From the NCBI GenBank assembly GCA_032718475.1, contig JAUCBJ010002196.1, positions 18,299 to 82,298 of the forward strand: DNA of 64,000 nucleotides. The letters run 5' to 3'. Both the position numbers and the translations under genes were made by a program. How positions within the stretch are numbered: the stretch's first letter is position 1; every line of letters begins with the position of its first letter. This DNA is from Nemertoderma westbladi (lineage: Eukaryota; Animalia; Xenacoelomorpha). Below are positions 1-51,340 of this stretch, in pieces. Under the pieces are notes generated by a model, which saw only the letters and a program-made list of their open reading frames with translations, had not been told where the DNA came from and searched no databases.

Positions 1-3000
1 CTGTGTCACACAATACTATCAGCTTGTGTCATACAATACTCTCTGCCTGTGTCACACAATACTATCAGCTTGTGTCATACAATACTCTCTGCCTGTGTCA
101 CACAATACTCTCTGATTGTGTCACACAATACTCTCTGTCTGTGTCACACAATACTCTCTGCTTGTGTCACACAATACTCTCTGCCTGTGTCACACAATAC
201 TATCAGCTTGTGTCACACAATACTCTCTGTCTGTGTCACACAATACTCTCTGCCTGTGTCACACAATACTCTCTGCCTGTGTCACACAATACTCCTGCTT
301 GTGTCACACAAGACGCTCTGATTGTGTCACACAATATTCTCTGTCTGTGTCACACAATACTATCAGCTTGTGTCACACAATACTCTCTGCCTGTGTCACA
401 CAATACTCTATGTCTGTGTCACACAATACTATCAGCTTGTGTCACACAATACTCTCTACCTGTGTCACACAATACTCTCTGAGTGTGTGAATTAATACTC
501 ACTGCCTGTGTCACACAATACTATCAGCTTGTGTCACACAATACTCTCTGAGTGTGTGACTCAATACTCTCTGCCTGTGTCACACAATACTCTCTGCTTG
601 TGTCACACAAGACGCTCTGCTTGTGTCACACAATACTCTCTGTCTGTGTCACACAATACGTTCTGCTTGTGTCACACAATACGTACTGCTTGTGTCACAC
701 AATACTCTCTACCTGTGTCACAGAATACTCTCTACCTGTGTCACACAATACTCTCTGTCTGTGTCACACAATACTCTCTGCCTGTGTCACACAATACTCT
801 CTGCCTGTGTCACACAATACTATCAGCTTGTGTCACACAATACTATCTGCCTGTGTAACACAATACTCACTGATTGTGTCGCACAATACTCTCTGCCTGT
901 GTCACACAATACTCTCTGCTGGTGTCACACAATGCTCTCTGCCTGCGTCACACAATACTCCTGCTTGTGTCACACAATACGCTCTGCTTGTGTCACACAA
1001 TACTCTCAGTCTGTATCACACAAGACGCTCTGAGTGTGTGACTCAATACTCTCTGCCTGTGTCACACAATACTATCAGCTTCTGTCACACAATACTCTCT
1101 GCCTGTGTCACACAATACTCTCTGAGCGTGTGATTCAATACTCTCTGCCTGTGTCACACAATACTCTCTGAGTGTGTGACTCAATACTCTCTGCCTGTGT
1201 CACACAATACTATCAGCTTGTGTCACACAATACTCTCTGCCTGTGTGACACAATACTCTCTGAGTGTGTGAATTAATACTCAATGCCTGTGTCACACAAT
1301 ACTATCAGCTTGTGTCACACAATACTCTCTGAGTGTGTGACTCAATACTCTCTGCCTGTGTCACACAATACTCTCTACTTGTGTCACACAAGACGCTCTG
1401 CTTGTGTCACACAATACTCTCTGTCTGTGTCACACAATACGTTCTGCTTGTGTCACACAATACGTTCTGCTTGTGTCACACAATACTCTCTACCTGTGTC
1501 ACAGAATACTCTCTACCTGTGTCACACAATACTCTCTGTCTGTGTCACTCAATACTCTCTGCCTGTGTCACACAATACTCTCTGCCTGTGTCACACAATA
1601 CTATCAGCTTGTGTCACACAATACTATCTGCCTGTGTCACACAATACTCACTGATTGTGTCGCACAATACTCTCTGCCTGTGTCACACAATACTCTCTGC
1701 TGGTGTCACACAATACTATCTGCCTGCGTCACACAATACTCCTGCTTGTGTCACACAATACGCTCTGCTTGTGTCACACAATACTCTCAGTCTGTGTCAC
1801 ACAAGACGCTCTGAGTGTGTGACTCAATACTCTCTGCCTGTGTCACACAATACTATCAGCTTCTGTCACACAATACACTCTGCCTGTGTCACACAATACT
1901 CTCTGAGTGTGTGACTCAATACTCTCTGCCTGTGTCACACAATACTCTCTGAGTGTGTGACTCAATACTCTCTGCCTGTGTCACACAATACTATCAGCTT
2001 GTGTCACACAATACTCTCTGCCTGTGTCACACAATACTCTCTGATTGTGTCACACAATACTCTCTGTCTGTGTCAAACAATACTCTCTGCTTGTGTCACA
2101 CAATACTCTCTGCCCGTGTCACGCAATACTCTCTGAGTGTGTGAATTAATACTCACTGCCTGTGTCACACAATACTATCAGCTTGTGTCATACAATACTC
2201 TCTGCCTGTGTCACACAATACTATCAGCTTGTGTCATACAATACTCTCTGCCTGTGTCACACAATACTCTCTGATTGTGTCACACAATACTCTCTGTCTG
2301 TGTCACACAATAATCTCTGCTTGTGTCACACAATACTCTCTGCCTGTGTCACACAATACTATCAGCTTGTGTACACAATACTCTCTGTCTGTGTCACACA
2401 ATACTCTCTGAGTGTGTGACTCAATACTCTCTGCCTGTGTCACACAATACTATCAGCTTGTGTCATACAATACTCTCTGCCTGTGTCACACAATACTATC
2501 AGCTTGTGTCATACAATACTCTCTGCCTGTGTCACACAATACTCTCTGATTGTGTCACACAATACTCTCTGTCTGTGTCACACAATACTCTCTGCTTGTG
2601 TCACACAATACTCTCTGCCTGTGTCACACAATACTATCAGCTTGTGTCACACAATACTCTCTGTCTGTGTCACACAATACTCTCTGCCTGTGTCACACAA
2701 TACTCCTGCTTGTGTCACACAAGACGCTCTGCTTGTGTCACACAATATTCTCTGTCTGTGTCACACAATACTATCAGCTTGTGTCACACAATACTCTCTG
2801 CCTGTGTCACACAATACTCTATGTCTGTGTCACACAATACTATCAGCTTGTGTCACACAATACTCTCTACCTGTGTCACACAATACTCTCTGAGTGTGTG
2901 AATTAATACTCACTGCCTGTGTCACACAATACTATCAGCTTGTGTCACACAATACTCTCTGAGTGTGTGACTCAATACTCTCTGCCTGTGTCACACAATA

Positions 3001-6000
3001 CTCTCTGCTTGTGTCACACAAGACGCTCTGCTTGTGTCACACAATACTCTCTGTCTGTGTCACACAATACGTTCTGCTTGTGTCACACAATACGTACTGC
3101 TTGTGTCACACAATACTCTCTACCTGTGTCACAGAATACTCTCTACCTGTGTCACACAATACTCTCTGTCTGTGTCACACAATACTCTCTGCCTGTGTCA
3201 CACAATACTCTCTGCCTGTGTCACACAATACTATCAGCTTGTGTCACACAATACTATCTGCCTGTGTAACACAATACTCACTGATTGTGTCGCACAATAC
3301 TCTCTGCCTGTGTCACACAATACTCTCTGCTGGTGTCACACAATGCTCTCTGCCTGCGTCACACAATACTCCTGCTTGTGTCACACAATACGCTCTGCTT
3401 GTGTCACACAATACTCTCTGCTGGTGTCACACAATGCTCTCTGCCTGCGTCACACAATACTATCAGCTTGTGTCACACAATACTCTCTGAGTGTGTGAAT
3501 TAATACTCACTGCCTGTGTCACACAATACTATCAGCTTGTGTCATACAATACTCTCTGCCTGTGTCACACAATACTATCAGCTTGTGTCATACAATACTC
3601 TCTGCCTGTGTCACACAATACTATCAGCTTGTGTCATACAATACTCTCTGCTTGTGTCACACAATACTTTCTGCCCTTGTCACGCAATACTCTCTGAGTG
3701 TGTGAATTAATACTCACTGCCTGTGTCACACAATACTATCAGCTTGTGTCATACAATACTCTCTGCCTGTGTCACACAATACTATCAGCTTGTGTCATAC
3801 AATACTCTCTGCCTGTGTCACACAATACTATCAGCTTGTGTCATACAATACTCTCTGCTTGTGTCACACAATACTCTCTGCCCTTGTCACGCAATACTCT
3901 CTGAGTGTGTGAATTAATACTCACTGCCTGTGTCACACAATACTATCAGCTTGTGTCATACAATACTCTCTGCCTGTGTCACACAATACTATCAGCTTGT
4001 GTCATACAATACTCTCTGCCTGTGTCACACAATACTATCAGCTTGTGTCATACAATACTCTCTGCCTGTGTCACACAATACTCTCTGATTGTGTCACACA
4101 ATACTCTCTGTCTGTGTCACACAATAATCTCTGCTTGTGTCACACAATACTCTCTGCCTGTGTCACACAATACTATCAGCTTGTGTCACACAATACTCTC
4201 TGCCTGTGCCACACAATACTATCAGCTTGTGTCATACAATACTCTCTGCTTGTGTCACACAATACTCTCTGCCTGTGTCACACAATGCTCTCTGATTGTG
4301 TCACACAATACTCTCTGCCTGTGTCACACAATACTCTCTGAGTGTGTGACTCAATACTCTCTGCCTGTGTCACACAATACTATCAGCTTGTGTCACACAA
4401 TACTCTCTGCCTGTGCCACACAATACTATCAGCTTGTGTCATACAATACTCTCTGCCTGTGTCACACAATACTATCAGCTTGTGTCACACAATACTCTCT
4501 GCCTGTGCCACACAATACTATCAGCTTGTGTCATACAATACTCTCTGCCTGTGCCACACAATACTATCAGCTTGTGTCATACAATACTCTCTGCCTGTGC
4601 CACACAATACTCTCTGTCTGTGTCACACAATACTCTCTGCCTGTGTCACACAATACTCTCTGCCTGTGTCACACAATACTATCAGCTTGTCTCACACAAT
4701 ACTATCAGCTTGTGTCACACAATACTCTCTGCCTGTGCCACACAATACTATCAGCTTGTGTCATACAATACTCTCTGCCTGTGTCACACAATACTATCAG
4801 CTTGTGTCACACAATACTCTCTGCCTGTGCCACACAATACTATCAGCTTGTGTCATACAATACTCTCTGCCTGTGCCACACAATACTCTCTGTCTGTGTC
4901 ACACAATACTCTCTGCCTGTGTCACACAATACTCTCTGCCTGTGTCACACAATACTATCAGCTTGTCTCACACAATACTATCAGCTTGTGTCACACAATA
5001 CTCTCTGCCTGTGCCACACAATACTATCAGCTTGTGTCATACAATACTCTCTGCCTGTGTCACACAATACTATCAGCTTGTGTCACACAATACTCTCTGC
5101 CTGTGCCACACAATACTATCAGCTTGTGTCATACAATACTCTCTGCCTGTGCCACACAATACTCTCTGTCTGTGTCACACAATACTCTCTGCCTGTGTCA
5201 CACAATACTCTCTGCCTGTGTCACACAATACTATCAGCTTGTCTCACACAATACTATCAGCTTGTGTCACACAATACTCTCTGCCTGTGCCACACAATAC
5301 TATCAGCTTGTGTCATACAATACTCTCTGCCTGTGTCACACAATACTATCAGCTTGTGTCACACAATACTCTCTGCCTGTGTCACACAATACTCTCTGCC
5401 TGTGTCACACAATACTCTCTGCCTGTGTCACACAATACTCTCTGCCTGTGTCACACAATACTCTCTACCTGTGTCACACAATAATCTCTGCTTGTGTCAC
5501 ACAATACTATCAGCTTGTGTCACACAATACTCTCTGAGTGTGTGACTCAATACTCTCTGCCTGTGTCACACAATACTATCAGCTTGTGTCACACAATACT
5601 CTCTGCCTGTGCCACACAATACTATCAGCTTGTGTCATACAATACTCTCTGCCTGTGTCACACAATACTATCAGCTTGTGTCACACAATACTCTCTGCCT
5701 GTGTCACACAATACTCTCTGCCTGTGTCACACAATACTCTCTACCTGTGTCACACAATAATCTCTGCTTGTGTCACACAATACTCACTGCCTGTGTCACA
5801 CAATACTATCAGCTTGTGTCATACAATACTCTCTGCCTGTGTCACACAATACTATCAGCTTGTGTCATACAATACTCTCTGCCTGTGTCACACAATACTC
5901 TCTGATTGTGTCACACAATACTCTCTGTCTGTGTCACACAATAATCTCTGCTTGTGTCACACAATACTCTCTGCCTGTGTCACACAATACTCTCTGCCTG

Positions 6001-9000
6001 TGTCACACAATACTATCAGCTTGTGTCATACAATAATCTCTGCCTGTGTCACACAATACTCTCTGCCTGTGTCACACAATACTATCAGCTTGTCTCACAC
6101 AATACTATCAGCTTGTGTCACACAATACTCTCTGCCTGTGCCACACAATACTATCAGCTTGTGTCATACAATACTCTCTGCCTGTGTCACACAATACTAT
6201 CAGCTTGTGTCACACAATACTCTCTGCCTGTGTCACACAATACTCTCTGCCTGTGTCACACAATACTCTCTGCCTGTGTCACACAATACTCTCTGCCTGT
6301 GTCACACAATACTCTCTACCTGTGTCATACAATAATCTCTGCTTGTGTCACACAATACTATCAGCTTGTGTCACACAATACTCTCTGAGTGTGTGACTCA
6401 ATACTCTCTGCCTGTGTCACACAATACTATCAGCTTGTGTCACACAATACTCTCTGCCTGTGCCACACAATACTATCAGCTTGTGTCATACAATACTCTC
6501 TGCCTGTGTCACACAATACTATCAGCTTGTGTCACACAATACTCTCTGCCTGTGTCACACAATACTCTCTGCCTGTGTCACACAATACTCTCTACCTGTG
6601 TCACACAATAATCTCTGCTTGTGTCACACAATACTCACTGCCTGTGTCACACAATACTATCAGCTTGTGTCATACAATACTCTCTGCCTGTGTCACACAA
6701 TACTATCAGCTTGTGTCATACAATACTCTCTGCCTGTGTCACACAATACTCTCTGATTGTGTCACACAATACTCTCTGTCTGTGTCACACAATAATCTCT
6801 GCTTGTGTCACACAATACTCTCTGCCTGTGTCACACAATACTCTCTGCCTGTGTCACACAATACTATCAGCTTGTGTCATACAATACTCTCTGCCTGTGT
6901 CACACAATACTCTCTGCCTGTGACACACAATACTCTCTGCCTGTGACACACAATACTCTCTGCCTGTGACACACAATACTCTCTGCCTGTGTCACACAAT
7001 ACTCTCTGATTGTGTCACACAATACTCTCTGCCTGTGCCACACAATACTATCAGCCTGTGTCACACAATAATCTCTGCTTGTGTCACACAATACTCTCTG
7101 CCTGTGTCACACAATACTCTCTGCCCTTGTCACACAATACTCTCTGTCTGTGTCACACAATAATCTCTGCTTGTGTCACACAATACTCTCTGCTTGTGTC
7201 ACACAATACTATCAGCTTCTGTCACACAATACTCTCTGCCTGTGTCACACAATACTCTCTGAGCGTGTGATTCAATACTCTCTGCCTGTGTCACACAATA
7301 CTCTCTGAGTGTGTGACTCAATACTCTCTGCCTGTGTCACACAATACTATCAGCTTGTGTCACACAATACTCTCTGCCTGTGTGACACAATACTCTCTGA
7401 GTGTGTGAATTAATACTCAATGCCTGTGTCACACAATACTATCAGCTTGTGTCACACAATACTCTCTGAGTGTGTGACTCAATACTCTCTGCCTGTGTCA
7501 CACAATACTCTCTACTTGTGTCACACAAGACGCTCTGCTTGTGTCACACAATACTCTCTGTCTGTGTCACACAATACGTTCTGCTTGTGTCACACAATAC
7601 GTTCTGCTTGTGTCACACAATACTCTCTACCTGTGTCACAGAATACTCTCTACCTGTGTCACACAATACTCTCTGTCTGTGTCACTCAATACTCTCTGCC
7701 TGTGTCACACAATAGTCTCTGCCTGTGTCACACAATACTATCAGCTTGTGTCACACAATACTATCTGCCTGTGTCACACAATACTCACTGATTGTGTCGC
7801 ACAATACTCTCTGCCTGTGTCACACAATACTCTCTGCTGGTGTCACACAATACTATCTGCCTGCGTCACACAATACTCCTGCTTGTGTCACACAATACGC
7901 TCTGCTTGTGTCACACAATACTCTCAGTCTGTGTCACACAAGACGCTCTGAGTGTGTGACTCAATACTCTCTGCCTGTGTCACACAATACTATCAGCTTC
8001 TGTCACACAATACACTCTGCCTGTGTCACACAATACTCTCTGAGTGTGTGACTCAATACTCTCTGCCTGTGTCACACAATACTCTCTGAGTGTGTGACTC
8101 AATACTCTCTGCCTGTGTCACACAATACTATCAGCTTGTGTCACACAATACTCTCTGCCTGTGTCACACAATACTCTCTGATTGTGTCACACAATACTCT
8201 CTGTCTGTGTCAAACAATACTCTCTGCTTGTGTCACACAATACTCTCTGCCCGTGTCACGCAATACTCTCTGAGTGTGTGAATTAATACTCACTGCCTGT
8301 GTCACACAATACTATCAGCTTGTGTCATACAATACTCTCTGCCTGTGTCACACAATACTATCAGCTTGTGTCATACAATACTCTCTGCCTGTGTCACACA
8401 ATACTCTCTGATTGTGTCACACAATACTCTCTGTCTGTGTCACACAATAATCTCTGCTTGTGTCACACAATACTCTCTGCCTGTGTCACACAATACTATC
8501 AGCTTGTGTACACAATACTCTCTGTCTGTGTCACACAATACTCTCTGAGTGTGTGACTCAATACTCTCTGCCTGTGTCACACAATACTATCAGCTTGTGT
8601 CATACAATACTCTCTGCCTGTGTCACACAATACTATCAGCTTGTGTCATACAATACTCTCTGCCTGTGTCACACAATACTCTCTGATTGTGTCACACAAT
8701 ACTCTCTGTCTGTGTCACACAATACTCTCTGCTTGTGTCACACAATACTCTCTGCCTGTGTCACACAATACTATCAGCTTGTGTCACACAATACTCTCTG
8801 TCTGTGTCACACAATACTCTCTGCCTGTGTCACACAATACTCCTGCTTGTGTCACACAAGACGCTCTGCTTGTGTCACACAATATTCTCTGTCTGTGTCA
8901 CACAATACTATCAGCTTGTGTCACACAATACTCTCTGCCTGTGTCACACAATACTCTATGTCTGTGTCACACAATACTATCAGCTTGTGTCACACAATAC

Positions 9001-12000
9001 TCTCTACCTGTGTCACACAATACTCTCTGAGTGTGTGAATTAATACTCACTGCCTGTGTCACACAATACTATCAGCTTGTGTCACACAATACTCTCTGAG
9101 TGTGTGACTCAATACTCTCTGCCTGTGTCACACAATACTCTCTGCTTGTGTCACACAAGACGCTCTGCTTGTGTCACACAATACTCTCTGTCTGTGTCAC
9201 ACAATACGTTCTGCTTGTGTCACACAATACGTACTGCTTGTGTCACACAATACTCTCTACCTGTGTCACAGAATACTCTCTACCTGTGTCACACAATACT
9301 CTCTGTCTGTGTCACACAATACTCTCTGCCTGTGTCACACAATACTCTCTGCCTGTGTCACACAATACTATCAGCTTGTGTCACACAATACTATCTGCCT
9401 GTGTAACACAATACTCACTGATTGTGTCGCACAATACTCTCTGCCTGTGTCACACAATACTCTCTGCTGGTGTCACACAATGCTCTCTGCCTGCGTCACA
9501 CAATACTCCTGCTTGTGTCACACAATACGCTCTGCTTGTGTCACACAATACTCTCTGCTGGTGTCACACAATGCTCTCTGCCTGCGTCACACAATACTAT
9601 CAGCTTGTGTCACACAATACTCTCTGAGTGTGTGAATTAATACTCACTGCCTGTGTCACACAATACTATCAGCTTGTGTCATACAATACTCTCTGCCTGT
9701 GTCACACAATACTATCAGCTTGTGTCATACAATACTCTCTGCCTGTGTCACACAATACTATCAGCTTGTGTCATACAATACTCTCTGCTTGTGTCACACA
9801 ATACTTTCTGCCCTTGTCACGCAATACTCTCTGAGTGTGTGAATTAATACTCACTGCCTGTGTCACACAATACTATCAGCTTGTGTCATACAATACTCTC
9901 TGCCTGTGTCACACAATACTATCAGCTTGTGTCATACAATACTCTCTGCCTGTGTCACACAATACTATCAGCTTGTGTCATACAATACTCTCTGCTTGTG
10001 TCACACAATACTCTCTGCCCTTGTCACGCAATACTCTCTGAGTGTGTGAATTAATACTCACTGCCTGTGTCACACAATACTATCAGCTTGTGTCATACAA
10101 TACTCTCTGCCTGTGTCACACAATACTATCAGCTTGTGTCATACAATACTCTCTGCCTGTGTCACACAATACTATCAGCTTGTGTCATACAATACTCTCT
10201 GCCTGTGTCACACAATACTCTCTGATTGTGTCACACAATACTCTCTGTCTGTGTCACACAATAATCTCTGCTTGTGTCACACAATACTCTCTGCCTGTGT
10301 CACACAATACTATCAGCTTGTGTCACACAATACTCTCTGCCTGTGCCACACAATACTATCAGCTTGTGTCATACAATACTCTCTGCTTGTGTCACACAAT
10401 ACTCTCTGCCTGTGTCACACAATACTCTCTGATTGTGTCACACAATACTCTCTGCCTGTGTCACACAATACTCTCTGAGTGTGTGACTCAATACTCTCTG
10501 CCTGTGTCACACAATACTATCAGCTTGTGTCACACAATACTCTCTGCCTGTGCCACACAATACTATCAGCTTGTGTCATACAATACTCTCTGCCTGTGTC
10601 ACACAATACTATCAGCTTGTGTCACACAATACTCTCTGCCTGTGCCACACAATACTATCAGCTTGTGTCATACAATACTCTCTGCCTGTGCCACACAATA
10701 CTATCAGCTTGTGTCATACAATACTCTCTGCCTGTGCCACACAATACTCTCTGTCTGTGTCACACAATACTCTCTGCCTGTGTCACACAATACTCTCTGC
10801 CTGTGTCACACAATACTATCAGCTTGTCTCACACAATACTATCAGCTTGTGTCACACAATACTCTCTGCCTGTGCCACACAATACTATCAGCTTGTGTCA
10901 TACAATACTCTCTGCCTGTGTCACACAATACTATCAGCTTGTGTCACACAATACTCTCTGCCTGTGCCACACAATACTATCAGCTTGTGTCATACAATAC
11001 TCTCTGCCTGTGCCACACAATACTCTCTGTCTGTGTCACACAATACTCTCTGCCTGTGTCACACAATACTCTCTGCCTGTGTCACACAATACTATCAGCT
11101 TGTCTCACACAATACTATCAGCTTGTGTCACACAATACTCTCTGCCTGTGCCACACAATACTATCAGCTTGTGTCATACAATACTCTCTGCCTGTGTCAC
11201 ACAATACTATCAGCTTGTGTCACACAATACTCTCTGCCTGTGCCACACAATACTATCAGCTTGTGTCATACAATACTCTCTGCCTGTGCCACACAATACT
11301 CTCTGTCTGTGTCACACAATACTCTCTGCCTGTGTCACACAATACTCTCTGCCTGTGTCACACAATACTATCAGCTTGTCTCACACAATACTATCAGCTT
11401 GTGTCACACAATACTCTCTGCCTGTGCCACACAATACTATCAGCTTGTGTCATACAATACTCTCTGCCTGTGTCACACAATACTATCAGCTTGTGTCACA
11501 CAATACTCTCTGCCTGTGTCACACAATACTCTCTGCCTGTGTCACACAATACTCTCTGCCTGTGTCACACAATACTCTCTGCCTGTGTCACACAATAATC
11601 TCTGCTTGTGTCACACAATACTATCAGCTTGTGTCACACAATACTCTCTGAGTGTGTGACTCAATACTCTCTGCCTGTGTCACACAATACTATCAGCTTG
11701 TGTCACACAATACTCTCTGCCTGTGCCACACAATACTATCAGCTTGTGTCATACAATACTCTCTGCCTGTGTCACACAATACTATCAGCTTGTGTCACAC
11801 AATACTCTCTGCCTGTGTCACACAATACTCTCTGCCTGTGTCACACAATACTCTCTACCTGTGTCACACAATAATCTCTGCTTGTGTCACACAATACTCA
11901 CTGCCTGTGTCACACAATACTATCAGCTTGTGTCATACAATACTCTCTGCCTGTGTCACACAATACTATCAGCTTGTGTCATACAATACTCTCTGCCTGT

Positions 12001-15000
12001 GTCACACAATACTCTCTGATTGTGTCACACAATACTCTCTGTCTGTGTCACACAATAATCTCTGCTTGTGTCACACAATACTCTCTGCCTGTGTCACACA
12101 ATACTCTCTGCCTGTGTCACACAATACTATCAGCTTGTGTCATACAATAATCTCTGCCTGTGTCACACAATACTCTCTGCCTGTGTCACACAATACTATC
12201 AGCTTGTCTCACACAATACTATCAGCTTGTGTCACACAATACTCTCTGCCTGTGCCACACAATACTATCAGCTTGTGTCATACAATACTCTCTGCCTGTG
12301 TCACACAATACTATCAGCTTGTGTCACACAATACTCTCTGCCTGTGTCACACAATACTCTCTGCCTGTGTCACACAATACTCTCTGCCTGTGTCACACAA
12401 TACTCTCTGCCTGTGTCACACAATACTCTCTACCTGTGTCACACAATAATCTCTGCTTGTGTCACACAATACTATCAGCTTGTGTCACACAATACTCTCT
12501 GAGTGTGTGACTCAATACTCTCTGCCTGTGTCACACAATACTATCAGCTTGTGTCACACAATACTCTCTGCCTGTGCCACACAATACTATCAGCTTGTGT
12601 CATACAATACTCTCTGCCTGTGTCACACAATACTATCAGCTTGTGTCACACAATACTCTCTGCCTGTGTCACACAATACTCTCTGCCTGTGTCACACAAT
12701 ACTCTCTACCTGTGTCACACAATAATCTCTGCTTGTGTCACACAATACTCACTGCCTGTGTCACACAATACTATCAGCTTGTGTCATACAATACTCTCTG
12801 CCTGTGTCACACAATACTATCAGCTTGTGTCATACAATACTCTCTGCCTGTGTCACACAATACTCTCTGATTGTGTCACACAATACTCTCTGTCTGTGTC
12901 ACACAATAATCTCTGCTTGTGTCACACAATACTCTCTGCCTGTGTCACACAATACTCTCTGCCTGTGTCACACAATACTATCAGCTTGTGTCATACAATA
13001 CTCTCTGCCTGTGTCACACAATACTCTCTGCCTGTGACACACAATACTCTCTGCCTGTGACACACAATACTCTCTGCCTGTGACACACAATACTCTCTGC
13101 CTGTGTCACACAATACTCTCTGATTGTGTCACACAATACTCTCTGCCTGTGCCACACAATACTATCAGCCTGTGTCACACAATAATCTCTGCTTGTGTCA
13201 CACAATACTCTCTGCCTGTGTCACACAATACTCTCTGCCCTTGTCACACAATACTCTCTGTCTGTGTCACACAATAATCTCTGCTTGTGTCACACAATAC
13301 TCTCTGCTTGTGTCACACAATACTCTCTGCCCTTGTCACACAATACTCTCTGATTGTGTCACACAATACTCTCTGCCTGTGTCACACAATACTATCAGCT
13401 TGTGTCATACAATGCTCTCTGCCTGTGTCACACAATACTCTCTGCCTGTGTCACACAATACTCTCTGATTGTGTCACACAATACTCTCTGTCTGTGTCAC
13501 ACAATAATCTCTGCTTGTGTCACACAATACTCTCTGCCTGTGTCACACAATACTCTCTGATTGTGTCACACAATACTCTCTGTCTGTGTCACACAATAAT
13601 CTCTGCTTGTGTCACACAATACTCTCTGCCTGTGTCACACAATACTATCAGCTTGTGTCATACAATACTCTCTGCCTGTGTCACACAATACTCTCTGCCT
13701 GTGTCACACAATACTCTCTGTCTGTGTCACACAATAATCTCTGCTTGTGTCACACAATACTCTCTGCCTGTGTCACACAATACTATCAGCTTGTGTACAC
13801 AATACTCTCTGTCTGTGTCACACAATACTCTCTGAGTGTGTGACTCAATACTCTCTGCCTGTGTCACACAATACTATCAGCTTGTGTCATACAATACTCT
13901 CTGCCTGTGTCACACAATACTATCAGCTTGTGTCATACAATACTCTCTGCCTGTGTCACACAATACTCTCTGATTGTGTCACACAATACTCTCTGTCTGT
14001 GTCACACAATACTCTCTGCTTGTGTCACACAATACTCTCTGCCTGTGTCACACAATACTCTCTGATTGTGTCACACAATACTCTCTGCCTGTGTCACACA
14101 ATACTATCAGCTTGTGTCATACAATACTCTCTGCCTGTGTCACACAATACTCTCTGCCTGTGTCACACAATACTCTCTGATTGTGTCACACAATACTCTC
14201 TGTCTGTGTCACACAATAATCTCTGCTTGTGTCACACAATACTCTCTGCCTGTGTCACACAATACTCTCTGATTGTGTCACACAATACTCTCTGTCTGTG
14301 TCACACAATAATCTCTGCTTGTGTCACACAATACTCTCTGCCTGTGTCACACAATACTATCAGCTTGTGTCATACAATACTCTCTGCCTGTGTCACACAA
14401 TACTCTCTGCCTGTGTCACACAATACTCTCTGTCTGTGTCACACAATAATCTCTGCTTGTGTCACACAATACTCTCTGCCTGTGTCACACAATACTATCA
14501 GCTTGTGTACACAATACTCTCTGTCTGTGTCACACAATACTCTCTGAGTGTGTGACTCAATACTCTCTGCCTGTGTCACACAATACTATCAGCTTGTGTC
14601 ATACAATACTCTCTGCCTGTGTCACACAATACTATCAGCTTGTGTCATACAATACTCTCTGCCTGTGTCACACAATACTCTCTGATTGTGTCACACAATA
14701 CTCTCTGTCTGTGTCACACAATACTCTCTGCTTGTGTCACACAATACTCTCTGCCTGTGTCACACAATACTATCAGCTTGTGTCACACAATACTCTCTGT
14801 CTGTGTCACACAATACTCTCTGCCTGTGTCACACAATACTCCTGCTTGTGTCACACAAGACGCTCTGATTGTGTCACACAATATTCTCTGTCTGTGTCAC
14901 ACAATACTATCAGCTTGTGTCACACAATACTCTCTGCCTGTGTCACACAATACTCTATGTCTGTGTCACACAATACTATCAGCTTGTGTCACACAATACT

Positions 15001-18000
15001 CTCTACCTGTGTCACACAATACTCTCTGAGTGTGTGAATTAATACTCACTGCCTGTGTCACACAATACTATCAGCTTGTGTCACACAATACTCTCTGAGT
15101 GTGTGACTCAATACTCTCTGCCTGTGTCACACAATACTCTCTGCTTGTGTCACACAAGACGCTCTGCTTGTGTCACACAATACTCTCTGTCTGTGTCACA
15201 CAATACGTTCTGCTTGTGTCACACAATACGTACTGCTTGTGTCACACAATACTCTCTACCTGTGTCACAGAATACTCTCTACCTGTGTCACACAATACTC
15301 TCTGTCTGTGTCACACAATACTCTCTGCCTGTGTCACACAATACTCTCTGCCTGTGTCACACAATACTATCAGCTTGTGTCACACAATACTATCTGCCTG
15401 TGTAACACAATACTCACTGATTGTGTCGCACAATACTCTCTGCCTGTGTCACACAATACTCTCTGCTGGTGTCACACAATGCTCTCTGCCTGCGTCACAC
15501 AATACTCCTGCTTGTGTCACACAATACGCTCTGCTTGTGTCACACAATACTCTCAGTCTGTATCACACAAGACGCTCTGAGTGTGTGACTCAATACTCTC
15601 TGCCTGTGTCACACAATACTATCAGCTTCTGTCACACAATACTCTCTGCCTGTGTCACACAATACTCTCTGAGCGTGTGATTCAATACTCTCTGCCTGTG
15701 TCACACAATACTCTCTGAGTGTGTGACTCAATACTCTCTGCCTGTGTCACACAATACTATCAGCTTGTGTCACACAATACTCTCTGCCTGTGTGACACAA
15801 TACTCTCTGAGTGTGTGAATTAATACTCAATGCCTGTGTCACACAATACTATCAGCTTGTGTCACACAATACTCTCTGAGTGTGTGACTCAATACTCTCT
15901 GCCTGTGTCACACAATACTCTCTACTTGTGTCACACAAGACGCTCTGCTTGTGTCACACAATACTCTCTGTCTGTGTCACACAATACGTTCTGCTTGTGT
16001 CACACAATACGTTCTGCTTGTGTCACACAATACTCTCTACCTGTGTCACAGAATACTCTCTACCTGTGTCACACAATACTCTCTGTCTGTGTCACTCAAT
16101 ACTCTCTGCCTGTGTCACACAATAGTCTCTGCCTGTGTCACACAATACTATCAGCTTGTGTCACACAATACTATCTGCCTGTGTCACACAATACTCACTG
16201 ATTGTGTCGCACAATACTCTCTGCCTGTGTCACACAATACTCTCTGCTGGTGTCACACAATACTATCTGCCTGCGTCACACAATACTCCTGCTTGTGTCA
16301 CACAATACGCTCTGCTTGTGTCACACAATACTCTCAGTCTGTGTCACACAAGACGCTCTGAGTGTGTGACTCAATACTCTCTGCCTGTGTCACACAATAC
16401 TATCAGCTTCTGTCACACAATACACTCTGCCTGTGTCACACAATACTCTCTGAGTGTGTGACTCAATACTCTCTGCCTGTGTCACACAATACTCTCTGAG
16501 TGTGTGACTCAATACTCTCTGCCTGTGTCACACAATACTATCAGCTTGTGTCACACAATACTCTCTGCCTGTGTCACACAATACTCTCTGATTGTGTCAC
16601 ACAATACTCTCTGTCTGTGTCAAACAATACTCTCTGCTTGTGTCACACAATACTCTCTGCCCGTGTCACGCAATACTCTCTGAGTGTGTGAATTAATACT
16701 CACTGCCTGTGTCACACAATACTATCAGCTTGTGTCATACAATACTCTCTGCCTGTGTCACACAATACTATCAGCTTGTGTCATACAATACTCTCTGCCT
16801 GTGTCACACAATACTCTCTGATTGTGTCACACAATACTCTCTGTCTGTGTCACACAATAATCTCTGCTTGTGTCACACAATACTCTCTGCCTGTGTCACA
16901 CAATACTATCAGCTTGTGTACACAATACTCTCTGTCTGTGTCACACAATACTCTCTGAGTGTGTGACTCAATACTCTCTGCCTGTGTCACACAATACTAT
17001 CAGCTTGTGTCATACAATACTCTCTGCCTGTGTCACACAATACTATCAGCTTGTGTCATACAATACTCTCTGCCTGTGTCACACAATACTCTCTGATTGT
17101 GTCACACAATACTCTCTGTCTGTGTCACACAATACTCTCTGCTTGTGTCACACAATACTCTCTGCCTGTGTCACACAATACTATCAGCTTGTGTCACACA
17201 ATACTCTCTGTCTGTGTCACACAATACTCTCTGCCTGTGTCACACAATACTCCTGCTTGTGTCACACAAGACGCTCTGCTTGTGTCACACAATATTCTCT
17301 GTCTGTGTCACACAATACTATCAGCTTGTGTCACACAATACTCTCTGCCTGTGTCACACAATACTCTATGTCTGTGTCACACAATACTATCAGCTTGTGT
17401 CACACAATACTCTCTACCTGTGTCACACAATACTCTCTGAGTGTGTGAATTAATACTCACTGCCTGTGTCACACAATACTATCAGCTTGTGTCACACAAT
17501 ACTCTCTGAGTGTGTGACTCAATACTCTCTGCCTGTGTCACACAATACTCTCTGCTTGTGTCACACAAGACGCTCTGCTTGTGTCACACAATACTCTCTG
17601 TCTGTGTCACACAATACGTTCTGCTTGTGTCACACAATACGTACTGCTTGTGTCACACAATACTCTCTACCTGTGTCACAGAATACTCTCTACCTGTGTC
17701 ACACAATACTCTCTGTCTGTGTCACACAATACTCTCTGCCTGTGTCACACAATACTCTCTGCCTGTGTCACACAATACTATCAGCTTGTGTCACACAATA
17801 CTATCTGCCTGTGTAACACAATACTCACTGATTGTGTCGCACAATACTCTCTGCCTGTGTCACACAATACTCTCTGCTGGTGTCACACAATGCTCTCTGC
17901 CTGCGTCACACAATACTCCTGCTTGTGTCACACAATACGCTCTGCTTGTGTCACACAATACTCTCAGTCTGTATCACACAAGACGCTCTGAGTGTGTGAC

Positions 18001-20678
18001 TCAATACTCTCTGCCTGTGTCACACAATACTATCAGCTTCTGTCACACAATACTCTCTGCCTGTGTCACACAATACTCTCTGAGTGTGTGACTCAATACT
18101 CTCTGCCTGTGTCACACAATACTATCAGCTTGTGTCACACAATACTCTCTGCCTGTGTCACACAATACTCTCTGATTGTGTCACACAATACTCTCTGTCT
18201 GTGTCACACAATACTCTCTGCTTGTGTCACACAATACTCTCTGCCCGTGTCACGCAATACTCTCTGAGTGTGTGAATTAATACTCACTGCCTGTGTCACA
18301 CAATACTATCAGCTTGTGTCATACAATACTCTCTGCCTGTGTCACACAATACTATCAGCTTGTGTCATACAATACTCTCTGCCTGTGTCACACAATACTC
18401 TCTGATTGTGTCACACAATACTCTCTGTCTGTGTCACACAATAAGCTCTGCTTGTGTCACACAATGCTCTCTGCCTGTGTCACACAATACTATCAGCTTG
18501 TGTCACACAATACTCTCTGTCTGTGTCACACAATACTCTCTGAGTGTGTGACTCAATACTCTCTGCCTGTGTCACACAATACTATCAGCTTGTGTCATAC
18601 AATACTCTCTGCCTGTGTCACACAATACTATCAGCTTGTGTCATACAATACTCTCTGCCTGTGTCACACAATACTCTCTGATTGTGTCACACAATACTCT
18701 CTGTCTGTGTCACACAATACTCTCTGCTTGTGTCACACAATACTCTCTGCCTGTGTCACACAATACTATCAGCTTGTGTCACACAATACTCTCTGTCTGT
18801 GTCACACAATACTCTCTGCCTGTGTCACACAATACTCCTGCTTGTGTCACACAAGACGCTCTGCTTGTGTCACACAATACTCTCTGTCTGTGTCTCACAA
18901 TACTATCAGCTTGTGTCACACAATACTCTCTGCCTGTGTCACACAATACTCTATGTCTGTGTCACACAATACTATCAGCTTGTGTCACACAATACTCTCT
19001 ACCTGTGTCACACAATACTCTCTGAGTGTGTGAATTAATACTCACTGCCTGTGTCACACAATACTATCAGCTTGTGTCACACAATACTCTCTGAGTGTGT
19101 GACTCAATACTCTCTGCCTGTGTCACACAATACTATCAGCTTGTGTCACACAATTCTCTCTGAGTGTGTGACTCAATACTCTCTGCCTGTGTCACACAAT
19201 ACTCTCTGCTTGTGTCACACAAGACGCTCTGCTTGTGTCACACAATACTCTCTGTCTGTGTCACACAATACGTTTTGCTTGTGTCACACAATACGTTATG
19301 CTTGTGTCACACAATACTCTCCTCCTGTGTCACAGAATACTCTATACCTGTGTCACACAATACTCTCTGCCTGTGTCACACAATATTCTCTGCCTGTGTC
19401 ACACAATACTCTCTGCTTGTGTCACACAATACTCTCTGCCTGTGTCACACAATATTCTCTGCATGTGTCACACAATACTATCAGCTTGTGTCATACAATA
19501 CTCTCTGCCTGTGTCACACAATACTCTCTGCCTGTGTCAAACAATACTATCAGCTTGTGTCATACAATACACTCTGCCTGTGTCACACAATACTCACTGA
19601 TTGTGTCGCACAATACTCTCTGCCTGTGTCACACAATAATCTCTGCTTGTGACACACAATACTATCTGCCTGTGTCACACAATACTCCTGCTTGTGTCAC
19701 ACAATACTCTCTGTCTGTGTCATACAAGACGCTCTGCTTGGGTCACACAATAACCCCTGTATGTTTCACACAATACTATCAGCTTGTGTCACACAATACT
19801 CTCTGCCTGTGTCACACAATACTCTCTGAGTGTGTGACTCAATACTCTCTGCATGTGTCACACAATAGTATCAGCTTGTGTCACACAATACTATCTGCCT
19901 GTGTCACACAATACTATCAGCTTGTGTCACACAATACTCTCTGAGTGTGTGACTCAATACTCTCTGTCTGTGTCACACAATACTCTCTGCTCGTGTCACA
20001 CAATACACTCTGCTTGTGTCACACAATACTCTCTGTCTGTGTCACACAATACGTTTTGCTTGCGTCACACAATACGTTCTGCTTGTGTAACACAATACTC
20101 TCTTCCTGTGTCACAGAATACTCTCTACCTGTATCACACAATACTCTCTGCCTGTGTCACACAATATTATCTGCCTGTGTCACCCAATACTATCAGCTTG
20201 TGTCATACTATACTCTCTGCCTGTGTCACACAATACTCTCTGAATGTGTGACTCAATACTCTATGCATGTGTCACACAATAGTATCAGCTTGTGTCACAC
20301 AATACTATCTGCCTGTGTCACACAATACTATCAGCTTGTGTCACACAATACTCTCTGAGTGTGTGACTCAATACTCTCTGTCTGTGTCACACAATACTCT
20401 CTGCTCGTGTCACACAATACACTCTGCTTGTGTCACACAATACTCTCTGTCTGTGTCACACAATACGTTTTGCTTGTGTCACACAATATTATCTGCCTGT
20501 GTCACCCAATACTATCAGCTTGTGTCATACTATACTCTCTGCCTGTGTCATACAATACTCTCTGCCTGTGTCACACAATACTCACTGATTGTGTCGCACA
20601 ATACTCTCTGCCTGTGTCACACAATACTGTCTGCTTGTGTCACACAATACTATCTGTCTGTGTCACACAAGACGGTCT
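1..20678. repeat. 23-bp satellite array (consensus CTGTGTCACACAATACTCTCTGC) with nested higher-order repeats; runs off the window start
   Basis: Head-to-tail 23-bp monomers with recurring variants (…TATCAGCTTG…, …GAGTGTGTGACTC…, …AAGACG…). Identical ORF translations recur at offsets of 207, 851, 2411, 6137 and 8410 bp. Confidence 0.99.
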
Positions 20679-21212
20679 ATATTGTATTTATTCCAAGCCA
20701 CGGGGGCCCATAGTAAAATAGTAGATACATAAACAAAAAGGACATAAACAAAAAGGACATAAACAAACAAATACTTTACAAACAAATACTTTACAAAATA
20801 CACATAGCACACTAGTAATTAATAATAAACACCGAAACTCTAATAGCAATTACGTAGTTAAACGAAAAAGGCTAGTGCTGGTGCAAACTAAATATAACAG
20901 AGTAAGGTCTACATAAATTGTATACACCACCTAAGATAGTGTTGTAAGAATGAGTATTCTATTTAATAGGCTTTGTGAGGATCTATAAGTTATGTGAAAA
21001 AACATTGGCAAACGTAGTTCGCCAAAAGAAAGTGACATACTTGTAGGTTCTTCACCGGTGAGCCTAGGGATATTAAACAGTAGCCTAGCACAATTATTGT
21101 AAGCTACCCTAATCTTATCGTACGCACGATGTGAGTAGTTCTTACTAGCCCATAGGCTGTTGCAGTATATTGGGGTACAGTAAGCACGAAAAAGTGCAGT
21201 TTTAACATACAT
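20679..21212 (-). mobile_element. 3' terminal fragment of a non-LTR retrotransposon (RTE-X-like ORF2 C-terminus plus 3' UTR)
   Basis: ORF 20931-21212 reads VKTALFRAYCTPIYCNSLW…KIRVAYNNCARLLF, which resembles the post-RT C-terminus of RTE-X-type LINEs. The 3' UTR ends …ATGGGCCCCCGTGGCTTGGAATAAATACAATATA at the satellite junction. Confidence 0.75.
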
Positions 21213-21397
21213 TTATTATAGGAAGGGATCTAGGGGTCTTAACCTCGAATGATAAGTTTATTTTACCGAAAATAACTTATCTTTTATTGGCGCAATTGTA
21301 GGACTAATCCCATCACATGCGTACTTTTTAACCGGGTAGTGTACAAATTTAAGAATCGCGTAATTTTTCTTGAAATTAATATCTCATATCTCTCCAA

Positions 21398-21440
21398 ACC
21401 ACGTACGCGTTTCGACCTTACTGGGTCTCATCAGCGTGGT
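21398..21440 (-). ncRNA. Type I hammerhead ribozyme (minimal stem III), copy 1
   Basis: The minus strand reads ACCACG CUGAUGA GACC-CAGUAA-GGUC GAAA CGCG UA/CGUGGU. This gives stem I ACCACG/CGUGGU, an intact CUGANGA and GAAA core, stem II GACC/GGUC, a palindromic ACGCGU stem III and a GUA cleavage triplet. Confidence 0.92.
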
Positions 21441-21503
21441 GTCGGATTCGAACCTGGGACCTCGAGGTGGAAGCCGAGACTACAACCACTAGGCCACAGG
21501 TTC
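21441..21503 (-). promoter_or_regulatory. tRNA-derived internal Pol III promoter (SINE-type head); repeated at +412, +824 and +1236
   Basis: A box TGGCCTAGTGG (21486-21496) and B box GGTTCGAATCC (21444-21454) at tRNA spacing. An anticodon-like arm CTCGG-CTTCCAC-CTCGAG is present. The acceptor stem does not pair. Confidence 0.85.
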
Positions 21504-21809
21504 TTGAGATATGGAGTATTAATTTCAAAGCCAGCTGCCATTTTATTAGCCCCTGAGTTTTTGATTATTGATAGTAACAATGTGTTGGCAAGCTGTATTT
21601 TTCGAGGTGTTTGTTATTCTACATTTATTATAGGAAGGGATCTAGGGGTCTTAACCTCGAATGATAAGTTTATTTTACCGAAAATAACTTATCTTTTATT
21701 GGCGCAATTGTAGGACTAATCCCATCACATGCGTACTTTTTAACCGGGTAGTGTACAAATTTAAGAATCGCGTAATTTTTCTTGAAATTAATATCTCATA
21801 TCTCTCCAA

Positions 21810-21852
21810 ACCACGTACGCGTTTCGACCTTACTGGGTCTCATCAGCGTGGT
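21810..21852 (-). ncRNA. Type I hammerhead ribozyme, copy 2
   Basis: Same sequence as 21398-21440, offset +412. Confidence 0.92.
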
Positions 21853-22221
21853 GTCGGATTCGAACCTGGGACCTCGAGGTGGAAGCCGAGACTACAACCA
21901 CTAGGCCACAGGTTCTTGAGATATGGAGTATTAATTTCAAAGCCAGCTGCCATTTTATTAGCCCCTGAGTTTTTGATTATTGATAGTAACAATGTGTTGG
22001 CAAGCTGTATTTTTCGAGGTGTTTGTTATTCTACATTTATTATAGGAAGGGATCTAGGGGTCTTAACCTCGAATGATAAGTTTATTTTACCGAAAATAAC
22101 TTATCTTTTATTGGCGCAATTGTAGGACTAATCCCATCACATGCGTACTTTTTAACCGGGTAGTGTACAAATTTAAGAATCGCGTAATTTTTCTTGAAAT
22201 TAATATCTCATATCTCTCCAA

Positions 22222-22264
22222 ACCACGTACGCGTTTCGACCTTACTGGGTCTCATCAGCGTGGT
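22222..22264 (-). ncRNA. Type I hammerhead ribozyme, copy 3
   Basis: Same sequence as 21398-21440, offset +824. Confidence 0.92.
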
Positions 22265-22633
22265 GTCGGATTCGAACCTGGGACCTCGAGGTGGAAGCCG
22301 AGACTACAACCACTAGGCCACAGGTTCTTGAGATATGGAGTATTAATTTCAAAGCCAGCTGCCATTTTATTAGCCCCTGAGTTTTTGATTATTGATAGTA
22401 ACAATGTGTTGGCAAGCTGTATTTTTCGAGGTGTTTGTTATTCTACATTTATTATAGGAAGGGATCTAGGGGTCTTAACCTCGAATGATAAGTTTATTTT
22501 ACCGAAAATAACTTATCTTTTATTGGCGCAATTGTAGGACTAATCCCATCACATGCGTACTTTTTAACCGGGTAGTGTACAAATTTAAGAATCGCGTAAT
22601 TTTTCTTGAAATTAATATCTCATATCTCTCCAA

Positions 22634-22676
22634 ACCACGTACGCGTTTCGACCTTACTGGGTCTCATCAGCGTGGT
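22634..22676 (-). ncRNA. Type I hammerhead ribozyme, copy 4
   Basis: Same sequence as 21398-21440, offset +1236. Confidence 0.92.
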
Positions 22677-22781
22677 GTCGGATTCGAACCTGGGACCTCG
22701 AGGTGGAAGCCGAGACTACAACCACTAGGCCACAGGTTCTTGAGATATGGAGTATTAATTTCAAAGCCAGCTGCCATTTTA

Positions 22782-24184
22782 TGTCACACAAGACGCTCTG
22801 CTTGTGTCACACAATACTCTATGTCTGTGTCACACAATACGTTCTGCTTGTGTTACACAATACTGTCTACCTGTGTGACACAATACTCTCTGAGTGTGTG
22901 AATTAATACTCACTGCCTGTGTCACACAATACTCTCGGAGTGTGTGACTCAACACTCTCTGCCTGTGTCACACAATACTATCAGCTTGTGTCACACAATA
23001 CTCTCTGTCTGTGTCACACAATACTATTACCTTGTGTCACACAATACTCTCTGCCTGTGTGACACAATACTCTCTGAGTGTGTGAATTAATACTCACTGC
23101 CTGTGTCACACAATACTATCAGCTTGTGTCACACAATACTCTCTGAGTGTGTGACTCAATACTCTCTGCCTGTGTCACACAATACTCTCTGCTTGTGTCA
23201 CACAAGACGCTCTGCTTGTGTCACACAATACTCTATGTCTGTGTCACACAATACGTTCTGCTTGTGTCACACAATACTTTCTACCTGTGTCACAGAATAC
23301 TCTCTGCCTGTGTCACACAATACTCTCTGTCTGTGTCACACAATACTCTCTGCCTGTGTCACACAATACTCTCTGCCTGTGTCACACAATACTATCAGCT
23401 TGTGTCTGCGGGTGTCACACAATACTCTCTGCCTGCGTCACACAATACTCCTGCTTCTGTCACACAATACGCTCTGCTTGTGTCACACAATACTCTCAGT
23501 CTGTGTCACACAAGACGCTCTGCTTGGGTCACACAATCCTCCCTGTATGTGTCATACAATACTATCAGCTTCTGTCACGCAATACTCTCTGCCTGTGTCA
23601 CACAATACTCTCTGAGTGTGTGACTCAATACTCTCTGCCTGTGTCACAATACTATCAGCTTGTGTCATACAATACTCTCTGCCTGTGTCACACAATACTC
23701 TCTGCTTGTGTCACACAATACTCTCTGCCTGTGTCACACAATACTCCTGCTTGTGTCACACAAGACGCTCTGCTTGTGTCACACAATACTCTCTGTCTAT
23801 GTCACACAATACTATCAGCTTGTGTCACACAATACTCTCTGTCTGTGTCACACAATACTCTCGGAGTGTGTGACTCAACACTCTCTGCCTGTGTCACACA
23901 ATACTATCAGCTTGTGTCACACAATACTCTCTGTCTGTGTCACACAATACTCTCTACCTGTGTCACAGAATACTCTCTACCTGTGTCACGCAATACTCTC
24001 TGCCTGTGTCACACAATACTCTCTGCCTCTGCCACACAATACTCTCTGCTTGTGTCACACAATACTATCTGCCTGTGACACACAATACTCTCTGCTTGTG
24101 CCACACAATACTCTCTACCTGTGTCACGCAATATTCTCTGCCTGTGTCACACAATACACTCTGCCTGTGTCACACAATACTCTG
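22782..24184. repeat. 23-bp satellite, distal and more diverged block
   Basis: The same monomer resumes after the insertion, with more private substitutions. Confidence 0.98.
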
Positions 24185-24285
24185 ACATCCCCATTGGTGA
24201 TATAACATTCCAAGAGGTCTTGTCTGCTTCAAAGCTCATTAAAACCAATAGGGCATTCGGGGTTGATGATGATTTAAGAGAATGA
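24181..24285 (+). pseudogene. Degenerate fragment of an RTE-type LINE ORF
   Basis: Translates SDIPIGDITFQEVLSASKLIKTNRAFGVD, which aligns to PDITIGDISFAEVKAAAKSIKTNRAASGVD in the LINE ORF at 49303-51030. Confidence 0.8.
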
Positions 24286-26631: not shown

Positions 26632-27712
26632 AGGGGCAAACCAATTGCTTGGCAGAAAATGGATTCATTAGCCAAGTGTCGTCCATCAGTTCAGATAATC
26701 AAAATGTTTTCTATGTTATGTTAGAATGCTAAGAAAATTATTAGGAAACAATTTCATATCATCCTCGAATGTAAGCCTTACCGTGCAACTGTGATCCTTA
26801 CTTTTACGTCAACCGATTAGCCAATGATAGAGCAGAAATCAGTTGGCTAAGGGGTCTTGATAAAGTGCCATGTAGGGGCAAACCAAGTGCTTGGAAGGGA
26901 ATGGATTCAGTCGCCAAATAACATCCGATCGGTTCATATCTAAACATTTTTATCGTGTATAACTATAAAAAAGAATTATCTTCCCATTGCAGAATGAAAT
27001 CGATATCTTGGATGTTACTTCGTTTTACATCAACCGATTAGCCAATGACAGAGCAGAAATCAGTTGGCTAAGGGGTCTTGATAAAGTGCCATGTAGGGGC
27101 AAACCAAGTGCTTGGAAGGGAATGGATTCAGTCGCCAAATAACATCCGATCGGTTCATATCTAAACATTTTTATCGTGTATAACTATAAAAAAGAATTAT
27201 ATTCCCATTGCAGAATGAAATCGAGATCTTGGATGTTACTTAGTTTTACATCAACCGATTAGCCAATGACAGAGCAGAAATCAGTTGGCTAAGGGGTCTT
27301 GATAAAGTGCCATGTAGGGGCAAACCAAGTGCTTGGAAGGGAATGGATTCAGTCGCCAAATAACATCCGATCGGTTCATATCTAAACATTTTTATCAGTG
27401 TATAACTATAAAAAAGAATTATCTTCCCATTGCAGAATGAAATCGATATCTTGGATGTTACTTCGTTTTACATCGACCGATTAGCCAATGACAGAGCAGA
27501 AATCAGTTGGCTAAGGGGTCTTGATAAAGTGCCATGTAGGGGCAAACCAAGTGCTTGGAAGGGAATGGATTCAGTCGCCAAATAACATCCGATCGGTTCA
27601 TATCTAAACATTTTTATCCTGTATAACTATAAAAAAGAATTATCTTCCCATTGCAGAATGAAATCGAGATCTTGGATGTTACTTCGTTTTACATCAACCG
27701 ATTAGCCAATCA
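26632..27712. repeat. ~221-bp tandem repeat: 4 near-identical copies plus a diverged first copy
   Basis: CAACCGATTAGCCAAT at ~26810, 27031, 27252, 27474 and 27695. A diverged AGGGGCAAACCAA…ATGGATTCA lies at 26632. Confidence 0.95.
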
Positions 27713-49260: not shown

Positions 49261-49302
49261 CTACTACTACTAGGATCAGCATGCTGCATTGCAGCTGCAT
49301 TT

Positions 49303-51030: not shown

Positions 51031-51340
51031 ATTGATCGATTTCCATGCCTGGGATGATTGCCTGCTGTCGTCAGCATCATTGATGGCATCAACCTGTTGG
51101 TTTATTAGCTCCTGTAGATTAACAGCGTACTGCCTGTTCAGGGACCTAGATGCAGCCTTAACTGCATTCTTGGCCGCTGTAGTCTGTTTGAGTCGGGACT
51201 CTTTCTACGCCTTATGAAGGTCATTTCGGCACTTCTGAATTTTGTTGTCAGTCCAGGGGGCCCTTTTCCTGTTTCGAGGGTATACAGGAACTGCTTCTGC
51301 AGCTGCTAACTTAACTGCTTCTGTAAAGGCAGTATAGCCC

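Follow-up and report, generated by a model that had tools for sequence, protein, structure and literature searches.

In the genome of the xenacoelomorph Nemertoderma westbladi, a 2.1-kb composite insertion lies inside a 23-bp satellite. Its 5' part is an array of 412-bp units, each carrying a hammerhead ribozyme motif behind a tRNA-like head, and its 3' part is the 3' end of a long interspersed nuclear element (LINE), with a likely target-site duplication (TSD) on both sides. The stretch analysed, called the window below, comprises 64,000 nucleotides of contig JAUCBJ010002196.1 (assembly GCA_032718475.1, positions 18,299 to 82,298 of the forward strand), and all coordinates are counted from its first letter. 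The composite structure is the most informative feature of the locus; it was absent from a first-pass annotation of this DNA, in which the array had been described. The unit is identified with high confidence as a hammerhead retrozyme, and a single chimeric insertion of array and LINE is strongly favoured. [quoted passage not shown] For this reading as a whole, a probability of about 0.55 is given.

The Array and Its LINE Tail

The tandem repeat with a period of 412 bp extends from 21208 to 22782 (3.82 copies) and reads on the minus strand as a 143-nt lead, three complete cut-to-cut monomers, and a 196-nt end, so that both array ends are offset from the predicted ribozyme cut site by these lengths. 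A comparison at a lag of 412 gave matches at 1163 of 1163 positions, with boundaries of identity exactly at 21208 and 22782. Period and span of the first-pass annotation were thus confirmed, the copies being 100% identical; among the window's other arrays of long period, identity is lower (97% for a 221-bp array and 89% for a 61-bp array). All three full copies have a C at the equivalent positions 21619, 22031, and 22443, where A accounts for more than 99% of the depth in the sequencing runs X1 and X2. The presence of this rare variant in every full unit points to a single template molecule; together with 21352 and 21563, position 21619 is counted among the private variants of the array.

The unit has a GC content of 39.6% and is noncoding, with a single frame of 145 codons on the opposite strand that is without a Pfam match. 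In sequence it corresponds to an animal non-LTR retrozyme, being a tandem repeat in the range of 150-450 bp with a type I hammerhead in each copy, a GC content below 50%, and no long terminal repeat (LTR), primer binding site, or polypurine tract. For the predicted 412-nt monomer or circle (21404..21815, minus strand), a fold of -108.4 kcal/mol was calculated (z -4.79), and none of 100 shuffled sequences was equally stable.

Downstream of the array and in the same orientation, a 5'-truncated LINE of 535 bp (20675..21209, minus strand) codes for the C-terminal 92 codons of open reading frame (ORF) 2 (21209-20934), followed by a 3' end with AATAAA. Array end and LINE start overlap by 2 nt (TA, 21208..21209), and LINE contigs match as far as 21209. 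With HMMER, 226 proteins were identified as relatives of the LINE tail (E ≤0.001). Among the 13 long matches to its ORF that were scanned, RVT_1 was present in 12, an Exo_endo_phos-type endonuclease N-terminal to RVT_1 in nine, and a GIY-YIG domain in none; the top match, P0121, is an unrelated repeat protein without an RT. A Penelope-like element was considered for the adjoining ORF and rejected, since the homologues have an N-terminal Exo_endo_phos domain and RVT_1 and lack GIY-YIG. A word-index search with the LINE tail gave no match, the ESM Atlas returned unnamed clusters only, and a cluster look-up gave no useful names.

In run X2, record 9 (3408 nt) matches 20680-21209, and here the LINE continues upstream without the 412-bp repeat. 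For run X1, hand reading of a loose end gave LARKFCHASV as an in-frame continuation of the ORF, which resembles the homologues in alignment A1. The array/LINE junction was bridged by no listed contig of X1, X2, X3, or X5, an absence which proves nothing, and the LINE-side depth at the junction equals that of the LINE contig alone in these runs.

A 17-kb satellite with a 64-bp period has a second LINE at its end (49270-51950, minus strand). This LINE contains RVT_1 and Exo_endo_phos and has a (TAG)n-type tail; we take it to be RTE-like. Its identity to a homologue of the chimeric LINE is no more than 21%, and it therefore belongs to a different family. A short fragment resembling its ORF is located on the plus strand at 24184-24280, abutting the end of the 23-bp satellite.

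The Insertion Site

The 23-bp satellite into which the composite was inserted spans positions 1..20670 and resumes at 22782-24183. On its 5' side the array directly adjoins the 14-mer CGTCTTGTGTGACA (22782..22795, minus strand), the last A of which is also the first array base (1-nt overlap); the 3' copy of the same 14-mer follows the LINE tail at 20661..20674 (minus strand). The 14-mer is uncommon among the satellite units (23 of 672 carry this variant), and the remaining 21 copies are never less than 250 bp apart. Judged from the sequence, the 14-bp repeat is likely a TSD. No LINE sequence is present 5' of the array, and there is no duplication that belongs to the array alone. The locus thus has the structure of an RNA/LINE chimera, in which a part that is not LINE precedes the 3' end of a truncated LINE, both parts lying on one strand and sharing one (likely) TSD.

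Alternatively, the composite could have arisen in two events or by capture at the DNA level. Here, the truncated LINE would have been inserted first, the retrozyme would have been added at its 5' junction by other machinery, such as that of a Penelope element, or from DNA and then amplified by unequal exchange, and the LINE RT would never have copied retrozyme RNA. Penelope elements are indeed preferred in published models, satellite regions recombine, and an empty site was not found in the window. However, this requires that the retrozyme arrived precisely at the 5' junction of the LINE, and the same orientation of both parts and the overlaps of 1-2 nt fit a single event. An array that abuts the 14-mer, without a duplication of its own and without LINE sequence on its 5' side, also argues against two events, which are considered quite improbable. 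A ligation of retrozyme RNA to LINE RNA by RtcB before reverse transcription was rejected, since a junction 196 nt from the cut site makes ligation at the ribozyme end unlikely.

The Hammerhead Motif

On the minus strand, a 43-nt type I hammerhead motif is present at 22676-22634, 22264-22222, 21852-21810, and 21440-21398, with N17 being an A at 22640, 22228, 21816, and 21404. The predicted cut after GUA is between 22640 and 22639 in the first motif, and correspondingly at 22228/22227, 21816/21815, and 21404/21403 in the others. This agrees with the first-pass annotation, which had placed hammerheads at 21398, 21810, 22222, and 22634 with a cut at 21404/21403 and a cleavage period of 412 nt. 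The motif has the CUGANGA, GAAA, and NUH core elements together with helices I and II, and it ends in helix I, as in type I hammerheads. A further core with a paired helix II was identified nowhere else in the 64-kb window; of 20000 dinucleotide-shuffled versions of the unit, 481 contained a loose core motif, no stem being required.

In circular and linear folds, pairing probabilities of 0.99-1.0 were obtained for helix II and of 0.76-0.97 for helix I. Helix III consists of the single pair A15.1-U16.1 closing a palindromic CGCG (ACGCGU). Between two copies, the ACGCGU palindrome could form a duplex of 6 bp with -7.5 kcal/mol, in a kissing geometry that lies outside ViennaRNA folding. With one pair and a palindrome in helix III, these models indicate that the hammerhead probably cleaves as a dimer. 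The description of the motif as a complete type I core consequently holds for the core nucleotides and for helices I and II, and fails for its completeness as a standalone ribozyme, since helix III is weak, palindromic, and probably dimer-requiring.

In Rfam, Hammerhead_HH9 was the best match by E-value (26.6 bits, E 5.2e-5, 151 nt), below the gathering cut-off of 52 bits, and no match at gathering score was obtained in the window. Matches to Mir-7386, Ysr206, and Fusobacteriales-1 were dismissed as chance.

The tRNA-Like Head and Transcription Signals

Each hammerhead is preceded on the minus strand by an A box, TGGCCTAGTGG, at 22732, 22320, 21908, and 21496, and a B box, GGTTCGAATCC, at 22690, 22278, 21866, and 21454. 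In the first unit, the tRNA-like head occupies 22680..22732 (A box 22732-22722, B box 22690-22680); the others are at 22320-22268, 21908-21856, and 21496-21444. No additional strict B box is present in the window, and when the unit was shuffled with its dinucleotides kept, a loose A and B box pattern occurred in 39 of 20000 cases. The boxes are spaced by 42 nt, compared to 42-46 nt in 31 tRNAs. When aligned to 62 prokaryotic tRNAs, the head reached a mean score of 32.9, matched by none of 300 full shuffles and by one of 300 shuffles in which the boxes were kept. A parent tRNA was not singled out, as the best single match was equalled by 65 of 300 box-keeping shuffles. By hand alignment, the anticodon position reads TCC, and the position of the 3' acceptor strand is taken by helix I of the hammerhead. 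ARAGORN made no tRNA call for the head, and Rfam gave no tRNA match to it up to an E-value of 10. Of the tRNA-derived Pol III promoter proposed in the first-pass annotation, the boxes, their spacing, and the likeness to tRNAs are therefore borne out, and a recognisable tRNA is not. From these sequence features, a working Pol III promoter is judged to be reasonably likely.

It had also been claimed that each integrated monomer would bring its own promoter. This is true of the sequence; functionally it does not hold, since cleavage would leave the monomer with its promoter at the 3' end, and a solo copy is thus unable to make a full unit. The same limit was stated for solo copies of the schistosome repeat Sm-alpha (PMC6765202). 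The sole T4 run of each unit, a possible leaky Pol III stop, is found at 21269..21272 (minus strand) and starts at 21684, 22096, and 22508 in the other units. It lies 131 nt past the cut, and one read-through is needed to reach the second ribozyme.

Head and hammerhead are enclosed by 23-bp inverted arms (21370..21528, minus strand; 21528-21506 with 21392-21370, 87%), for which a duplex of -24 kcal/mol was calculated. As one arm sits 5' of the A box, the stem requires sequence upstream of the box and is possible only in a read-through or circular RNA. This model suggests that the working molecule would be the whole unit, rather than a transcript of the type made by short interspersed nuclear elements (SINEs).

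Copies in Sequencing Runs

The window stretch or a part of it was present in seven of the eight runs listed (five studies), one run holding only a small share. On a 91-bp stretch, of which 48 bp are from the unit, 564 contigs were found in X1, 287 in X2, 350 in X3, and 12 in X5, and 79, 81, 82, and nine of these, respectively, continue into other, varied sequence; contig depth on the unit is not a copy number. Hundreds of contigs with varied flanks show that the 412-bp unit is multicopy and dispersed. Among the rows listed, common variants in X1 and X2 fall outside the boxes and the core. Loose ends are clustered at 21207-21216 and at 22388; they are partly unit variants, and no preferred ends are claimed. 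In metagenome contigs, a pattern for the exact family gave no match.

Run X4, taken as RNA by guess, contains the unit as one contig of 441 nt with three substitutions and one gap compared to the window, and neither satellite nor LINE. A length of 411 + 30 fits a closed cycle at k = 31; a tandem array or trace DNA would fit equally, and the contig is not counted as evidence.

The unit could also be an ordinary tRNA-SINE-derived tandem repeat with an inactive hammerhead or silent boxes, or its copy number an assembly artefact. The Rfam score below the gathering cut-off and the lack of a tRNA call are in line with the former, and identical units are open to over- or under-assembly. Against it stand the complete set of core nucleotides with helices I and II, the z of -4.79 for the fold, the box spacing and tRNA likeness, and the occurrence of the unit in independent runs of three studies. 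This explanation is regarded as very unlikely.

Proposed Mechanism

For the origin of the insertion from a circular RNA, the following steps are proposed. Pol III would initiate just upstream of an A box and read through one leaky T4 run. In the resulting transcript, adjacent hammerheads would pair their ACGCGU palindromes as helix III and cut after GUA, releasing the 412-nt monomer, which, by analogy to other retrozymes (PMC7229834), could be closed to a circle by a host ligase such as RtcB. For the last step, the structure is seen in the DNA and the event would have been as follows: the endonuclease-RT LINE nicked the 23-bp satellite and copied 535 nt of its own RNA, then switched to the retrozyme RNA at the 2-nt overlap, at a point 196 nt downstream of a cut site. 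It would have crossed four cut sites without error and stopped in mid-unit, and joining of the product to the target would have left the duplication of 14 bp. Four scarless crossings and a stop in mid-unit are most simply explained by a circle, and a circular template is accordingly preferred to a linear one with some confidence.

A linear template, the main rival explanation, would require no circle. The LINE RT would have switched either onto a multimer, transcribed by read-through from a homogeneous donor array and left uncut, or onto cleaved monomers, in serial end-to-end jumps. Uncut multimers are permitted by the weak helix III, multimeric RNAs are known in axolotl (PMC7229834), and the DNA product of an uncut linear multimer would be identical to that of a circle. 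Nevertheless, a donor array of at least four units with the rare variants in common is required, and tandem units favour cleavage as a dimer. Scars at the cut sites would be the expected trace of end-to-end jumps, and all four sites are perfect. A linear template is thus held to be rather unlikely.

Several points weigh against copying of a retrozyme circle by the LINE. For ribozyme activity, helix III has a pairing probability of 0 when the monomer is folded, and the HH9 alignment lacks the canonical bulge of helix I; with helix III unformed in the monomer and this bulge absent, cleavage may be slow. Eight of nine predicted Xenopus retrozyme dimers failed to cleave (bioRxiv 10.64898/2026.07.22.740005), and the core is altered in a degenerate contig of X5. 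For transcription, the T4 run could terminate most Pol III transcripts, and a depletion of T runs in the unit was not significant (P 0.51-0.55, shuffles). At the insertion site, both flanks are satellite; the sequence of upstream flank, 14-mer, and downstream flank is reproduced nowhere else in the window, and a reconstruction from the higher-order pattern of the satellite recovered no empty site. This makes the duplication likely and not proven, and from the frequency of the 14-mer variant, with the same satellite on both sides, the chance of a false TSD is roughly 3%. Finally, the LINE tail is covered by one main contig per run, compared to hundreds for the 412-bp unit, and one insertion would show that the enzyme of this LINE can copy retrozyme RNA, not that the LINE built the family. 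The extended proposal of a self-promoting RNA circle, independent of Penelope and spread by an endonuclease-RT LINE, for which the locus would be a fossil of rolling-circle reverse transcription that identifies the helper and the bulk of the family would have been amplified by the same enzyme, is considered doubtful.

Further Features of the Window and of Metagenome Loci

Two host genes were identified among the satellites on the minus strand: an intron-free ORF for CLN3/battenin of 469 codons (52368-53777) and a C-terminal exon of 418 codons for V-ATPase subunit a (61061-62317). The identity to the matches listed is at most 48% for CLN3 and at most 56% for V-ATPase a, and both are distant from all animals listed; in a quick tree of 61 of the 120 matches, CLN3 has an end branch of 1.96. 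The 221-bp tandem repeat (26802-27710, 4.1 copies, 97%) contains CCAAT-like motifs and neither a hammerhead core nor a B box.

A pattern of B box and hammerhead core was found in 27 metagenome loci (including L002, L003, L005-L013, L015-L020, and L022-L027, of which L027 is viral), which look prokaryotic or phage-like. For 22 of the 27, an intact tRNA (Glu-TTC in 15 cases) supplies the B box as its T loop, most with an encoded CCA end and the core within a few bases. In about 19 of the 27, a type I hammerhead is completed by a downstream GUC or GUA; its helix III is long and branched, and helix I covaries (CCT/AGG, CCA/TGG, TGTA/TACA, CACA/TGTG, CCTA/TAGG), features which lie outside the search pattern. 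Of the 27 loci, 20 were scanned with Rfam, and at gathering score the pattern-matched hammerheads in these were missed. Locus L007 carries on its minus strand a GOLLD RNA and a Hammerhead_1 match in a tRNA cluster (169-639 and 1027-1073). The loci share no similarity with the unit of the window beyond T arm and core. HDV-type theta ribozymes trim the 3' trailers of tRNAs, and the hammerheads of these loci may act in the same way. In the literature searched, nothing was found on this tRNA-hammerhead arrangement.

Comparison to Known Systems

The closest likeness of the unit is to the schistosome repeats Sm-alpha and Sj-alpha, which are SINE-like and in which a Pol III promoter is likewise followed in tandem by a type I hammerhead and comes to lie 3' in the cleaved monomer (PMC6765202). 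The Sm-alpha-like retrozyme reading of the first-pass annotation is supported by the anatomy of the unit, with its boxes, hammerhead motif, period, and tRNA-like head; since the tandem of promoter and hammerhead is already known from Sm-alpha, this core finding is of a known kind. The head of Sm-alpha was derived from tRNA-Gln-TTG (PMC2770079), whereas the anticodon position here is TCC by hand alignment, and helix III of the present unit is weak and palindromic. The comparison was made by description, no schistosome is among the matches listed for the host proteins, and the unit is not assigned to the Sm-alpha family.

With the animal non-LTR retrozymes described by Cervera and de la Peña (2020, PMC7229834), the unit shares the tandem organisation of 150-450 bp with a type I hammerhead, the GC content below 50%, the lack of coding capacity, and a highly self-paired monomer; the 14-bp duplication, if it is a TSD, would also fit their TSDs of more than 4 bp. 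In section 7 of PMC7761336, these elements are described as promoterless and without a clue to their helper, and they are viewed as Penelope-derived or Penelope-mobilised in accounts given in PMC7229834 and bioRxiv 10.64898/2026.07.22.740005, the latter proposing homology to a Penelope pseudo-LTR. In contrast, A and B boxes are present in the unit described here, and its fusion partner is an endonuclease-RT LINE. For the hammerhead, the nearest parallels are axolotl HHR_Amex1 and newt satellite 2, in which a one-pair helix III under a palindromic tetraloop is efficient only as a dimer (PMC7229834). Newt satellite 2 is apparently transcribed by Pol II, and helix III is mostly longer in invertebrate retrozymes (both PMC6765202).

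The insertion resembles U6/LINE-1 and other RNA/LINE chimeras, in which a non-LINE RNA lies 5' of a truncated LINE 3' end in the same orientation and within one TSD (bioRxiv 10.1101/2025.02.02.635956). According to the same source, such chimeras originate by template switching or RNA ligation, the same orientation being the pattern of template switching; the word "circular" is absent from its main text. Unlike in the U6/LINE-1 chimeras, the 5' partner is repeated 3.8 times here, in keeping with what a circular template should give, and the junction lies away from the cyclic-phosphate end of the ribozyme, which argues against pre-ligation by RtcB. No retrozyme-LINE chimera was found in the literature searched, which excluded subscription journals, supplements, and the primary Sm-alpha paper. 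The copying of retrozyme circles by an RT into cDNA of more than unit length has been predicted, with the enzyme left unnamed from sequence (PMC7761336, section 7; PMC7229834; bioRxiv 10.64898/2026.07.22.740005). If the proposed origin is correct, one such copy of more than unit length is physically recorded at this locus, joined to a particular LINE, and a defined candidate promoter is added. Chimera and explicit promoter together make two points on animal retrozymes testable with named parts, namely the RT source and its template on the one hand, and promoter, terminator, and dimer cleavage on the other.

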